Shown one piece after another: positions 15,713 to 61,320 of a DNA stretch of 64,000 nt (its first letter is position 1; the number at the start of each line of letters is the position of its first letter). The position numbers and the translations under genes were made by a program. Location: NCBI GenBank assembly GCA_964016885.1, contig OZ024764.1, positions 6,944,001 to 7,008,000 of the forward strand, read 5' to 3'. Origin of the DNA: Eledone cirrhosa (lineage: Eukaryota). The notes beneath the pieces were generated by a model. It was not told the origin of the DNA. It was given only the letters and a program-made list of their open reading frames with translations, and ran no database searches.

Positions 15713-15930
15713 TAGGAACGAGTAGGACCCCGATGGCTGAGCTCAAGCCGTTTCAACGGCTAATTCTGGGCTAAATGAAAATTTTCATTTAGTCCAGAAT
15801 CAGCCGTCGAAACGGCTTGAGCTCAGCCATCGGGGTCCTACTTGTTCCTATCACCCACTCTACTACCCTAAGTATTGAGTACTTTGGTGCGTTATGGTCC
15901 ATCTGGTTCCTTACCACATTTCCTTCGTTA
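15713..15930 (+). mobile_element. Loop-less palindromic element (15713-15850) plus tail, in (TA)n; carries the 3' half of a hammerhead
   Basis: Centre aaatgaaaattttcattt; GAAA-cggct..agcca-TC-ggggtcc; tail has ACTC...GAGTACTT. Confidence 0.7.
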
Positions 15931-16162
15931 TATATATACAGATATATATATATATATATATATATATATATATATATAGTTCTCTAGCTAGTACTATGTA
16001 TGTGACAGCTCACACCTATGCAGGTTTACCTGGCCTCCTCCAAGGTATATCTCGTTGGAGGTGTCTTGGGTAATTTAATGATAGGGACCCCAAGCAGTGG
16101 AATGATAGAGTCCCTATCATTCCACTGCTTGCTCCTCTTTTTACCAAAACAATTTCTACTGA

Positions 16163-16498
16163 ATATCATCATCATCATTTTACGTCCGCTTTTCCCTGCT
16201 TGCAAGGGTGGGACGGGAACTGATTCTGGCTTGATTTCTACAGCTGGATGACCTTCCTAACACCAACCTCATTTACAGTGAGTGCTGGGTGCTTTTTTGC
16301 CGTGGCACCTCCACGACCACTTTGCAGTGGAATGATAGGGACCCCAGTCCCTAACATCTCATTTCTACAGCTGAGTAAACTGGAGCAATGTGAAATAAAG
16401 TGCCTTGCTCAAGGAAACAACACATCACCCGGTCTGAGAATTGAACTCACAACCTTTCGGTTGCAAGCCTAATGCTCTAACCAGTGTGCCATGTGCCT
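16163..16498 (-). mobile_element. SINE family A
   Basis: Reverse complement of 9458-9800. Confidence 0.92.
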
Positions 16499-16614
16499 AC
16501 ACTAGCTAGTAGATCACTTGTAGTCTATATCTCTTGGGTGTCCTCACCAAATGGTTTGACATTCTGTTTCTTTGAAACATTAGAGCCCCGAGGGTATATT
16601 TTATGTCCTACTTA

Positions 16615-17097
16615 TCACACCACCACCACTATCTTCACCATCACCACCACACCACCACCACCACCACACCACCACCACCACTACACCACCACCACCACTA
16701 CTATCATCACTACAGTACCATCACCACCGCACCACCGCCACCACTACCATCATCACTACAGTACCATCACCACTACACACCACTACCACCACTACACCCC
16801 ACTACACATCACCACCACCACCACCACACACCACTACCACCACCACCACCACCACTACACATCACCACCACCACCACCACATCATCACCACCACCACCAC
16901 AACACACCAGCACTACCACCACCACCACCACCACTACCACCACCACCACTACATCCCACCACCACCACACATCACCACCACCACCACCACCACCACCACA
17001 CATCACCACCATACACCACCACCACACATCACCACCACACACCACCACCACCACCACTACACACCACCACCATCACCACTACATTACACCACCACCA
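16615..17097. repeat. (CAC/CAT)n low-complexity tract
   Basis: Visible. Confidence 0.9.
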
Positions 17098-17300
17098 GGT
17101 GATAGCGAGGCTAGGACACTGGAATAGCCAAGTACCCTCACTAGGACCATCACCTGATATAACTGGAAGGTGATAGCGAGGCTAGGACACTGGAACAGCC
17201 AAGTACCTTCACTAGGGGCATCACCTGATATATCTCTGAGGTGATAGTGAGGCTAGGAGACTGGAACAGCCAAGTACCTTCACCAGGAGAATCACCAACA
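17098..17300. repeat. ~71-bp tandem repeat, 3 copies
   Basis: ggtgatagcgaggctaggacactggaa at 17098, 17169 and 17239. Confidence 0.85.
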
Positions 17301-17410
17301 ATGTCCAGAACTTTGTCATTAGAGGAAGAAGATATTTTAATCAACTGTTAAGGCAAACATGAGTGAGTGTGTGTGTATATATATATATGTATATATATGT
17401 ATGTATGTAT

Positions 17411-18185
17411 CTAGGGCGGGTAAAATTCCTGAGATCCATGGACGAGTTCTCTCCAGCGGTCTCTGTCCCTCATTATCGCTTCTATGTCCTGCATCTCCAA
17501 CAGACCAGTGTCTGTCCTTAGGGCATCAACATAAGTCAACCTTGGTCTTCCGCTTCCAGTGTGTCAATGCAGGGGCTCCCACAGGAGCACTGAGTGCAGT
17601 GTCAACTCTGGATGTCGGTGAGCATGTCCAGCCAACCTCAGTCTCCTCTGTGTCACTTTTGAGCTGACTTTTGGGAGGCTCCCGTACAGCTCTGAGTTTT
17701 TCATCCTCAGTGTATACTGATTAATGTTCAGAGCCATCCTCAGCATTCTCGTGTAGCACCCATCCACCATCTGAGTGAGTTTCTTGGTCAGTGTCCAAGT
17801 CTCAGACCCGCACAGCAGCACAGACTCCACTACAGCAATGAAGAGGTGGATCTTCAGGTCTTTACGAAGGTCCGACTTCCACACCGATCTCAAGCTGTGG
17901 CACACCGCCCAGGCCTTGCTCTTCCTCTCAACCACATCATCTTCCGTATTCCCAATCTTTGCTCCCAAATACAGGAAGTCCTCAACCAATTCCAGCGGCT
18001 TCCCGCCTACATGAGTGATCCCCTCTGGCTTCTCAACATTCTCTACCAGATATTTTGTTTTAGTCTCATTCATTCTCAGCCCCACACTCATCGACACAGT
18101 CTCAACCTCCCGCATCAAATCCTCTGCCTCCTTCACTGTATTTGTCACCAAAACTATGTCGTCGGCAAATTCGGCATCCGATATC
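17411..18185 (-). mobile_element. Non-LTR (RTE-like) retrotransposon 3' fragment, second family
   Basis: FADDIVL upstream of ORF 17564..18151 (DFLYLG, LLCGSETWTLT, RRLRLAGH); copy at 45385-45750. Confidence 0.88.
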
Positions 18186-18425
18186 TTTTTCCTGTATGTA
18201 TGTATATATGTATATATGTGAGTGTGTATGTATGTATGTATGTATGTGTGTGTATATGTGTATATGTGTATGTATGTATATATGTATGTATATATGTATA
18301 TATGTATGTATATATGTATATATGTGTGTGTATGTATGTATGTATATATGTGTGTGTATATGTGTATATATGTATATATATCTATGTATGTATATATGTA
18401 TGTATGTATATATGTATGTATATTT

Positions 18426-58825: not shown

Positions 58826-59159
58826 TCATCATTTCATTTTACGTCCGCTTTTCCCTGCTACCAAGGGTGGGACGGGAACTGATTCTGGCTTGATTTCTAC
58901 AGCTGGATGCCCTTCCTAACACCAACCTCATTTACAGTGAGTGCTGGGTGCTTTTTTGCCGTGGCACCTCCACGACCACTTTGCAGTGGAATGATAGGGA
59001 CCCCAGTCCCTATCATCTCATTTCTACAGCTGAGTAAACTGGAGCAATGTGAAATAAAGTGTCTTGCTCAAGGAAACAACACATCACCCGGTCTGAGAAT
59101 TGAACTCACAACCTTGCGATTGCAAGGCCAATGTTCTAACCACTAAGCCATGTGCCTCC
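58826..59159 (-). mobile_element. SINE family A
   Basis: Reverse complement of 9458-9800. Confidence 0.92.
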
Positions 59160-59420
59160 ATATCTTTATTTAATTAAAAAAAATTTTTATTCTTTCTCTG
59201 AGACACTTTTAAAAAGATATTTTTTGAAAGCAAAGCATTTGCCCCTAAAATGCTACCGTGGGTCCATGTAGTGCTACTGTGGGCCCCCTGGACCCTAGTT
59301 GCCATTGGGCAACCTGGAAACCTGGCCAGTCTGCCACATACATATATATATATATAGAGAGAGAGAGTGGTAAATACTTATGTTTTCCTTACAGTTGTTA
59401 CATATTCTATTTTTTGACAG

Positions 59421-59477
59421 GTCAGGTGTGAGTGACCCTTATTGTGTGATAAAGATAGACAATGAACCCATTGCCAG
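59421..59477 (+). CDS. RASAL1: 57-bp internal exon of a GAP1-family RasGAP (RASAL1/RASA4-like), C2A domain
   Basis: Acceptor tttttgacAG, donor agGTAAGT; translates (x)SGVSDPYCVIKIDNEPIAR, matching my recollection of RASA4 TGSSDPYCIVKVDNEPIIR and RASAL1 SGSSDPYCLVKVDDEVVAR; RASAL1 versus RASA4 cannot be resolved. Confidence 0.85.
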
Positions 59478-59622
59478 GTAAGTTTCTCTTGTTTCACTCA
59501 TTTGACTGCTCTTTGGCCATACTGGGGCACCAACCATATAACCATATTGATACCAATACTTATTATATCGATCCCCTCTTGAACTTATCTATCCTTCTAT
59601 TTATTCCCCTCACTCTCTCTCC

Positions 59623-59663
59623 TCTTGCCTTCTGATGATGGACTAATGTCCGAAATGTCAAGA
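59623..59663 (+). ncRNA. Minimal hammerhead ribozyme motif
   Basis: cctt-CTGATGA-t-GGAC taat GTCC-GAAA-tg-TC-aaga; the tail caagcattaaactaatatat is shared with a truncated copy at 57505-57560. Confidence 0.75.
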
Positions 59664-60546
59664 TTGTTTTCCTATTATATCAAGCATTAAACTAATATAT
59701 ATCTTCACTGTACTGTATGGATTTGCTGTGTTGTAAATCCATTTACTTTTCACATACATGAATACATACACACAATCACACCTGTATGTGTGTGTGTGTG
59801 TGTGAAGACCCCCTTTGCTCACAAATGACCATGGCATTTACACCTAGAATGTTGCACTCCCAGGCACGAGTCCGGACCAGGTTGTTTGTGGAAGACCAGC
59901 AGTCACCCCTGGTATACCAGTCTCCCCTCTCCATACCACTGATGTTACCCAATGGAGAGGCAATGGCTGATACAGCTTGGCACCAGTGACGTCACAACTC
60001 ATATATACACTATATATATATACTATATATATAGACTATATATATACTATATATACACTATATATATAGATTATATATATACTATATATACACTATATAT
60101 ATAGACTATATATATAGTGTATATACACTATATATATAGACTATATATATACTATATATAGACTATATATATATAGACTATATATATACTATATATACAC
60201 TATATACGCTTTGACTTCTAACTAATTCACCAATCTCTCCTCTCCTATCTCCATCTCTCTCTTTAAGATTGGTTACTCTTGAACTGTGTATGTATATATA
60301 TATATATGTATACATATATATATATATATATATATATATATATATATATATATATATATATATAAATCAGGAAAGAAGGTTTACATGGTTTGCTATACAA
60401 AAAAGTTTTTAATCACATAGCTTACATTTGTTTCACTGAACTGGTATGTCTAGAGATCGCTATCCGCCTAATTTTGCGTCTAACTATTATTTGTTAATCC
60501 GTATATATATATATATATATATATATATATATATATATATATATAT

Positions 60547-60978
60547 GGAAAGTTATATTTAAATTGTTGGGTTAACAACGAGTAAATATTTATAACTGAT
60601 ATAAAGCACTCAACAAGTATTTGGAGTATATTTATGATATTAAATAAATGGAAACTATATTTATAAAACCATATTTATTTCGTTATATATATTTCAGGGA
60701 TATCATATTAACAATATGTTATGCCTTCTTCAGACAAAATACAATATAAACAGTCTTATAAATAAATAGATACGACATACCTTTCAATCACCTTGCATTT
60801 GGGAGGTTGATTTGGCAAGGTGATTGAAAGGTATGTCGTATCTATTTATTTATAAGACTGTTTATATTGTATTTTGTCTGAAGAAGGCATAACATATTGT
60901 TAATATGATATCCCTGAAATATATATAACGAAATAAATATGGTTTTATAAATATAGTTTCCATTTATTTAATATCATA
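60547..60978 (-). mobile_element. Fold-back hammerhead element in (TA)n
   Basis: Arms 60633-60796 and 60815-60978; hammerheads at 60678-60739 (-) and 60872-60933 (+): ttttgt-CTGAAGA-agg..cct-GAAA-TATATA-TA-acgaaa. Confidence 0.85.
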
Positions 60979-61062
60979 TATATATATATATATATATATA
61001 TATGTATACATATACATATATATGTGTATAAATATGTATACACATATATATATATATATATA

Positions 61063-61320
61063 TAGGAGGTGAGTTTTATTGTAGTACAATAAAGCAATGC
61101 AGATATCGGATAAGAAGCACTCTACAGTTTGTGGGACTGGAGTATGCATAATATAAGATCAAAAGATGGTTAAAGGAGTTCCATATATTTTATTATGCGC
61201 ATTTCAAAAACAAACATCATCAAGCAATAATATTTGTGTTTTCATCAGATAAAACAGGAGAACATGATATGAAGGCTAAAAAACACTTGTGGATAGTGCA
61301 GTTTTAAATCAACATATCAT
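61063..61320 (-). mobile_element. Hammerhead element (TGCGCA family) with complete tail
   Basis: Hammerhead at 61188-61254 (-), followed by ACTC...GAGTGCTT and (TA)n. Confidence 0.82.

Follow-up and report, generated by a model that had tools for sequence, protein, structure and literature searches.

The reverse transcriptases (RTs) of Penelope-like elements (PLEs) are the sister group of telomerase, and the motif described here addresses two questions about these retrotransposons, namely how their RNA is recognized and how their mirrored, one-tailed insertions originate. Members of the Hydra clade, according to the available passages of Craig et al. 2021 (PMC8557442), have just one open reading frame (ORF) for an RT and a GIY-YIG endonuclease, with the motifs RWK, DKT and CxCX5C and a terminal CxxC/CxH, and the tail and the inverted insertion of PLEs have already been described, both there and in the accessible part of PMC3846280. 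For the anole element Poseidon_Ac (PAc), the available sections of Frangieh et al. 2024 (PMC11167929) report that reverse transcription in vitro starts at two internal sites bounding the tail, that both target strands are cut and extended, that sequence 3' of the start is required, and that a dimer is predicted. The locus compared with these systems here is a 64,000-nt stretch of the genome of Eledone cirrhosa (assembly GCA_964016885.1, contig OZ024764.1, forward-strand positions 6,944,001 to 7,008,000), referred to at its full length as the window, in which an initial annotation had picked out a motif, ACTC-N12-22-GAGTRCTT, shared by what it regarded as otherwise dissimilar ribozyme elements. 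Our analysis indicates that the motif belongs to a predicted bulged hairpin present in two copies, HP1 and HP2, in Hydra-type PLEs, that copies of these elements break off about 5-7 nt before a hairpin, on its 5' side, and that each hairpin is likely bound by a protein, with RT starting upstream of it, a reading to which we assign a probability of roughly two in three.

All seven sites named in the annotation were present, at 15857-15884 (family A), 32624-32657 (B2), 33600-33629 (B1) and 34047-34070 (C1) on the plus strand and at 5622-5645 (C1), 60604-60627 (C2) and 61115-61143 (D) on the minus strand, and an eighth full match, which it had overlooked, lies at 30319-30349 (-) in family E. Markov simulations of the window (120 runs) gave an expectation of 0.075-0.15 full matches per window, with a maximum of 2, and in the 3.0-Gb genome of the species the bulge-T pattern matched 62,651 times, versus 1,802 for the reversed control pattern. 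A relaxed scan of the window added a ninth copy, in GCTC/GAGC (RNA GCUC/GAGC) form, at 11356-11380 (+) in a further repeat family, together with six other matches that do not have the RCT letters; GAGTRCTT alone occurs 10 times, and GAGTGCTT, claimed for about 34608, was located at 34608-34615. The carriers are not dissimilar ribozyme elements: they are homologous families, 3' stubs of autonomous Hydra-type PLEs, and a whole hammerhead core is found in the same element for only five of the eight copies, 100-118 nt upstream of the motif at 32624, 33600, 34047, 60604 and 61115. These minimal type I cores lie at 32524-32554 (+, B2), 33482-33528 (+, B1), 33943-33983 (+, C1), 60692-60733 (-, C2) and 61202-61248 (-, D, with a palindromic stem III). 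The copy at 15857 has the 3' half alone, and those at 5622 and 30319 have no hammerhead in the same element, a 147-nt hammerhead match at 5622 not being counted for that element since it is beyond a TA junction.

The pairing of ACUC with GAGU, proposed in the same annotation, held in all eight window copies, where it forms a lower stem, and the spacers, described there as unrelated, are not structureless, forming an upper stem with a 2-nt 3' bulge in all eight. The consensus is (A/G)CUC-(covarying stem)-UN-GAG(U/C)-RCU, in which the bulge starts with U and the sequence of the upper stem varies by family. To avoid circularity, the cases used for covariation were chosen on sequence alone (RCTC...GAGYRC at most 260 nt from a hammerhead core), and pairs were counted afterwards, by anchored scripts and not by a covariance model, in 43 non-redundant cases of 59 distinct ones from a marine metagenome and in 23 non-redundant cases of 70 from E. 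cirrhosa, the 70 including some chance matches. A 2-nt bulge allowed the first upper pair to form in 39 of the 43 metagenome cases, as against 2, 4, 6 and 13 of them with a bulge of 0, 1, 3 and 4 nt; the pair was C-G in 24 and U-A in 14. Across three upper positions 97 of 129 cells were paired (shuffle mean 62.6, maximum 78 in 5,000 shuffles), and the E. cirrhosa cases gave 52 of 69 against a shuffle mean of 31.8, supportive figures rather than probabilities, as the shuffle ignores relatedness. Among positions that played no part in the selection, the bulge U was kept in 95% and the purine preceding the bulge in 40 of 43, with 5' flank columns at only 37-56%; at the base of the stem, HP1 of E. 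cirrhosa has an A-U pair and HP2 a G-C pair.

That the motif is more conserved than its flanks is illustrated by families A and D, which both keep it and whose terminal repeats gave no BLASTN alignment at E<=1. The covariation of the stems contradicts neutral shared ancestry without function, an explanation that might draw on the placement of all five E. cirrhosa ORFs in one clade and that we find barely credible: at 37% protein identity the flanks and loops are unalignable, yet the motif letters and their pairing are kept, in distant hosts too. In a quick unrooted tree, whose rows were our own ORFs and metagenome sequences, with neither named Hydra references nor an outgroup, with 18 of the 79 metagenome loci omitted and with one row (L243) mis-extracted, the five ORFs formed one branch, and the sharing of the motif is therefore read as descent with selective retention. 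We conclude that the motif is real, conserved and probably functional.

Several other identities were considered for the conserved letters. A protein-coding reading of GAGTRCTT was ruled out by its non-coding position and by the pairing; the motif is not part of the hammerhead fold, as it sits 25-50 nt past the cut site at a variable distance; and, upstream of the hammerhead, what looked like a conserved 5' splice site was discarded, its GTATGT being GTACGT or GTACAT in relatives. Rfam searches of four twin-hairpin loci returned three sub-threshold matches, none over a hairpin, and among the 150 of 425 rows listed for the window all were sub-threshold microRNA models, with no family over the hairpin. 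At one family C2 locus (L173) the HP1 region can be aligned with the HP2 region (86% over 29 nt), which suggests that this pair of sequences arose or was homogenized by duplication.

The carriers were traced by walking upstream from the motif to intact ORFs, and the motif was indeed found in autonomous elements, ending intact ORFs of about 800 aa in units of 3.5-3.7 kb with a 1.2-kb 3' untranslated region (UTR). Family D (61115 in the window) is the end of an 821-codon frame (L102, L104), for which 103 scored genome matches show 98-100% identity and are almost all free of stops, family A (15857) is the end of a 784-786-codon frame (L171, L172), and families B and C are the ends of related frames; protein identities are 37-38% between A and D, 40-41% between A and C and 49-53% between C and D. 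The single ORF encodes an RT followed by a C-terminal GIY-YIG endonuclease. DKG is replaced by DKT in all family proteins, the residue after the N-terminal R-W motif is T or R, not K, in families A, C and D, the CxCX5C linker and the terminal CxxC and CxH are present in the D and A proteins, and no CCHH endonuclease motif, CxC domain or IFD was seen in the proteins by eye. The elements also have a hammerhead in the pseudo-long terminal repeat (pLTR) and (TA)n insertion sites, the hammerhead having a U3-A8 core and a full stem III in family A and a minimal core with a palindromic stem III in families B-D. By the protein marks in the available part of PMC8557442, then, the predicted proteins identify the carriers as ordinary Hydra-clade PLEs.

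An AlphaFold model of an element protein (predicted local distance difference test, pLDDT, 88.6) matched RTs, TERT being among the top rows, in a fold search in which the N-terminal domain did not stand out. A basic motif at residues 35-39 is conserved (R37 in 56 of 65 and W38 in 63 of 65) and falls within the helix formed by residues 18-48 of the model. Between thumb and endonuclease, residues ~588-654 of the L102 ORF form an Asn-rich insertion modeled with low confidence, like that reported for rotifer Penelope elements. At three loci (L146, L147 and L158) family A is present as 200-260-bp tandem repeats of a pLTR piece that includes both hairpins and half a hammerhead.

Full terminal repeats have the order hammerhead, HP1, HP2 and ATG, with 78-99 nt from HP1 to HP2 in eight references. 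The twin-hairpin pattern matched 2,481 times genome-wide versus 60 for the control, and of 30 twin loci sampled, 28 were these elements with a second, GCUC/GAGC hairpin and two were an unrelated tandem repeat; a Hydra-type frame of >100 aa opened 17-61 nt after HP2 at 18 of the 30, later at three and not at all at seven. The annotation had set the motif ahead of a 3' (TA)n junction, and this was borne out by a distance of 44-70 nt from the motif end to the next (TA)5+ run in the eight window copies, but the relevant junction adjoins the 5' side of the motif, where the inverted partner arm ends, and had been overlooked, as had the second hairpin, which full copies carry just past the 3' (TA)n junction.

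A gap of 4-8 nt separates the stop of inverted partner arms from the motif that follows, and ends were classed as E1 (a stop just 5' of HP1) or E2 (a stop just 5' of HP2). In the window, the family A arm at 15779-15928 faces a partner at 15712-15784 (-) that stops at (TA)n 5-8 nt before the HP1 position (E1), the partner of the B2 copy stops at 32372, 5 nt before HP1, and E1 ends are likewise found in the partners of C1 (33747-33917, -) and of C2 (60815-60978, +, facing the arm 60548-60817). The D copy at 61115 is in an arm at 61060-61317, and the C1 copy at 5622 is in a stub of ~95 nt (5560-5655). Family D also provides a long arm of 3' UTR plus hammerhead (34158-34607, -, E1) joined to a tail-only arm (34607-34670, +) that begins with GAGTGCTT, has an E2 end and has no sequence in common with its partner, and a second tail-only arm (32760-32815, -) is joined to a plus-strand arm ending near 33200 (E1).

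Over all scored loci, 181 of 193 TA-joined ends fell 0-10 nt 5' of a hairpin (HP1 80, HP2 101), and a gap of ~5-7 nt between copy end and hairpin suits most junctions. The hammerhead cut falls elsewhere than these ends, preceding HP1 by ~25 nt in family A and ~50 nt in family D. All 40 head-to-head pairs whose arms were classed by end type combined one E1 and one E2 end, and the known one-sided tail is therefore the hairpin-to-hairpin stretch. In 15 of the 40 the E1 arm extended beyond the E2 arm in the 5' direction by >15 nt, in three the E2 arm was the longer one, and 22 were level; in five the E2 arm was confined to the tail, as at 34607-34670. Fold-back of one cDNA was thus ruled out as the sole source of the inversion by the unequal and the tail-only arms, which point to two primings on RNA. 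At many loci the 5' stops of arms also recur upstream of the hammerhead, at about -173 (D) and -176 to -179 (B) relative to HP1, and in these two families they may mark the RNA start.

The same ends could be read as a signal in DNA, the GIY-YIG endonuclease recognizing the motif as a duplex or extruded in cDNA and cutting 5-7 nt away, so as to resolve an intermediate or to self-insert. Such a reading is in keeping with the D. virilis Penelope endonuclease, which reportedly needs the tail for recognition, with the ascription of the tail to endonuclease resolution in the accessible passages of Craig et al. (PMC8557442), and with the frequency of tail-only pieces that begin at the E1 site. It is nonetheless unlikely, as 15 of 40 insertions require two separately primed arms and as the compensatory stems, free loops and fixed 2-nt bulge imply recognition of a single strand.

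Two families outside A-D obey the same end rule and count in favor of ends set by the hairpins. For the 11356 family, which was not used to derive the rule, five inverted partner matches elsewhere stop 1-10 nt before the hairpin (query positions 97-106, hairpin at 107). The non-coding tandem unit of family E, 615 bp long, has HP1, a long-loop variant of HP2 and internal (TA)n and is found at L303 1752-2367 (-) and in the window at 30249-30470 (-), with a related unit in L040 and L017, and its copies stop ~5 nt before the HP2 variant. A coding role was ruled out (longest frame 105 aa, no tblastn match), the only trace of a hammerhead in the unit is a non-canonical core-like stretch, and family E is a candidate non-autonomous partner. 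The flank of the unit at ~2400-3070 (-) of L303 has a motif suggestive of a superfamily 3 helicase fragment of parvovirus type.

Family E bears as well on the proposal that the hairpins serve expression, as internal promoter, in controlling translation of the ORF 17-61 nt downstream or in the binding of a host factor, and that copy ends adjoin them because AU-rich stretches pair with a (TA)n primer. The hairpins are in the 5' leader of tandem copies, TAR-like pockets bind transcription factors (PMC6189040, in the sections available) and TA microhomology is present at most ends; TA-rich stretches, however, are spread over the whole of the repeats, whereas 181 of 193 ends follow the hairpins across variable spacing, and a non-coding unit keeps both hairpins, so that we regard an expression role as quite improbable.

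A scan of a marine metagenome for relatives yielded 79 loci, in which ORF flanks held 30 strict hairpins in sense (at 25 of the 79) and two in antisense, versus 0.1 expected from shuffles, and four further sense hairpins lay in pLTRs inside merged matches; 'none seen' in these data often means a truncated contig. The 54 metagenome hammerhead sites formed 36 clusters, nine of which were too short to read, and among the 27 readable ones 22 had a strict hairpin, versus 10 of 461 control windows, so that the motif is enriched near hammerheads; 14 of the 27 had two. At L230, L249 and L286 the 3' copy becomes (TA)n just ahead of HP1 of the 5' copy. An HP2 from the metagenome (L226:437) has the same 15-nt stem-loop interior as family D HP1 (61115-61143), with the proteins on different branches. 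The order seen in E. cirrhosa recurs in these metagenome relatives and also in coral and sea-cucumber consensus sequences from PMC8557442, where six families in the supplementary material available were inspected by eye, the full motif being found in Hydra-2_Amil (3' end), Hydra-2_Ajap (3' end) and Hydra-1_Ajap (5' end), and a mismatched one at both ends of Hydra-1_Crog.

Taken together, covariation, retention, enrichment near hammerheads and autonomous carriers fit the suggestion in the annotation that an RNA element acts in cis in recognition or priming by the RT, and the 3' processing that it offered as an alternative is the less favored of the two. If the case of PAc, whose internal starts bound its tail, is taken as the guide, a protein likely binds each hairpin, which would lie just 3' of a start. 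The GIY-YIG domain would nick both strands of a (TA)n tract, and two protein molecules, probably a dimer by analogy with PAc, would sit on HP1 and HP2, each priming cDNA on one nick with the help of UA microhomology. The two cDNAs would run toward the RNA 5' end and then be joined to give a head-to-head insertion in which the HP1-to-HP2 segment becomes the one-sided tail. More speculatively, a U.A-U triple formed by the R-U-N-G-A bulge might hold an arginine from the N-terminal domain, for which the clade-specific R-W motif is a candidate.

A number of observations weigh against priming at protein-bound hairpins. Of 277 arms, the 84 lacking a TA junction were left unscored, and of the 193 TA-joined ends twelve lie elsewhere than before a hairpin. 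TA microhomology of 2-6 nt makes the junctions imprecise, and some of the loci were retrieved via the motif, which enriches E2 ends. Wobble pairs show no clear preference for the sense strand (8 vs 3 in E. cirrhosa, 5 vs 4 in the metagenome), and the ~2,165 overlapping matches with (TA)n directly 5' of HP1 would be expected from a DNA cut as well. Three of the 27 readable metagenome clusters have no hairpin and two have loose forms only; in the part of the PMC8557442 supplement available, Hydra-1_Amil has only a partial motif and no motif was seen at the ends of Hydra-1_Obim. The basic protein motif is conserved, yet it is only a candidate partner of the hairpin. Lastly, in the accessible text of PMC11167929 the ends of RNA-seq reads of the anole element fall on the RT starts, as they would if hairpins directed RNA cleavage or termination 5-7 nt upstream and RT merely started at the new RNA 3' ends. 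That mechanism, which predicts the same two ends, is nevertheless rather unlikely: internal starts were obtained on uncut templates in vitro (PMC11167929, same sections), the hairpin is smaller than any known self-cleaving fold would require and matched no Rfam family, and although a cut at HP1 would part body and tail, 35 of 40 E2 arms cross the E1 site. Extending the preferred reading of hairpins as sites of protein binding and RT start, we tentatively entertain a portable cassette of ~110-130 nt in which two TAR-like arginine pockets would load two telomerase-related RT subunits, each priming ~6 nt upstream on opposite nicks in (TA)n, and any RNA bearing the cassette, unit E for example, might be mobilized in trans.

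Other features of the window include a 5'-truncated PLE at 45740-47140 (-) with thumb, Cys-rich linker and GIY-YIG and a hammerhead at 45940-45968, which by its motifs is putatively Neptune-like. The twin hairpin is absent from this stub and from the palindromic hammerhead family at 4794-5270; the two have termini that resemble each other, which suggests a different end signal in common. A Pfam scan of 15 window ORFs gave no match for the PLE fragment and only unrelated RT pieces of the long interspersed nuclear element (LINE) type, one with a PHD finger, at 19276-20151 (+), 17564-18451 (-) and 61995-64000 (-).

If the cassette reading is true, priming at twin sites would explain the inverted, one-tailed insertion of PLEs, and the hairpin would be the first RNA recognition element defined for a PLE protein. 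If the role in priming holds, the motif would define a signal that is compact, primes on two strands and could serve gene insertion by retrotransposons. Short and covarying, the motif keeps a constant spacing to either end throughout the clade and so specifies the exact mutations for testing it, in a family of which E. cirrhosa has at least 100 nearly identical open frames.

With the Hydra clade, as far as the available passages of PMC8557442 describe it, the elements share R-W, DKT, the linker, the pLTR hammerhead, (TA)n targets, the inverted 5'-truncated partner and the one-sided tail, and they differ in size, being 3.5-3.7 kb with a tail of 78-99 nt whereas those elements are generally <3 kb with a tail of 30-40; the word 'stem-loop' is absent from that main text, and no such signal is described in its passages. 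PAc, in the available sections of PMC11167929, likewise has two starts that bound the tail, but its start is in an AC-rich stem loop inside the ORF, whereas the ends here are in the non-coding leader, each 5' of a motif copy, and conserved paired hairpins are not described for it there. The bulge (purine, U, N, G, A) has, as predicted from sequence, the secondary structure of the arginine sandwich motif, which consists of a Watson-Crick pair, a bulged pyrimidine and then pairs of G and of A (Pham et al. 2018, PMC6189040, available part). It shares a paired purine, a bulged U and a G-A paired to C-U with human immunodeficiency virus (HIV) TAR (A22-U23...G26-A27) and 7SK SL1 (A39-U40-U41...A43), in which, however, the loop closes on the opposite side, a circular permutation that implies no homology. 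The minimal cores with palindromic stem III of families B-D resemble those in the accessible part of PMC4209133, and the available text of a 2026 preprint on non-LTR (non-long terminal repeat) retrozymes, from which 'hairpin', 'stem-loop' and 'tail' are all absent, describes type I cores, palindromic stem III, the U3-A8 variant seen in family A, and many truncated single copies. Retrozymes are non-coding tandem units, whereas families A-D are coding and only family E is non-coding; the hairpin, moreover, is located outside the ribozyme. In the open-access literature, subscription papers and Repbase notes being outside the search, no description of the paired hairpin was found; the elements, their tail and their inversion were already known.

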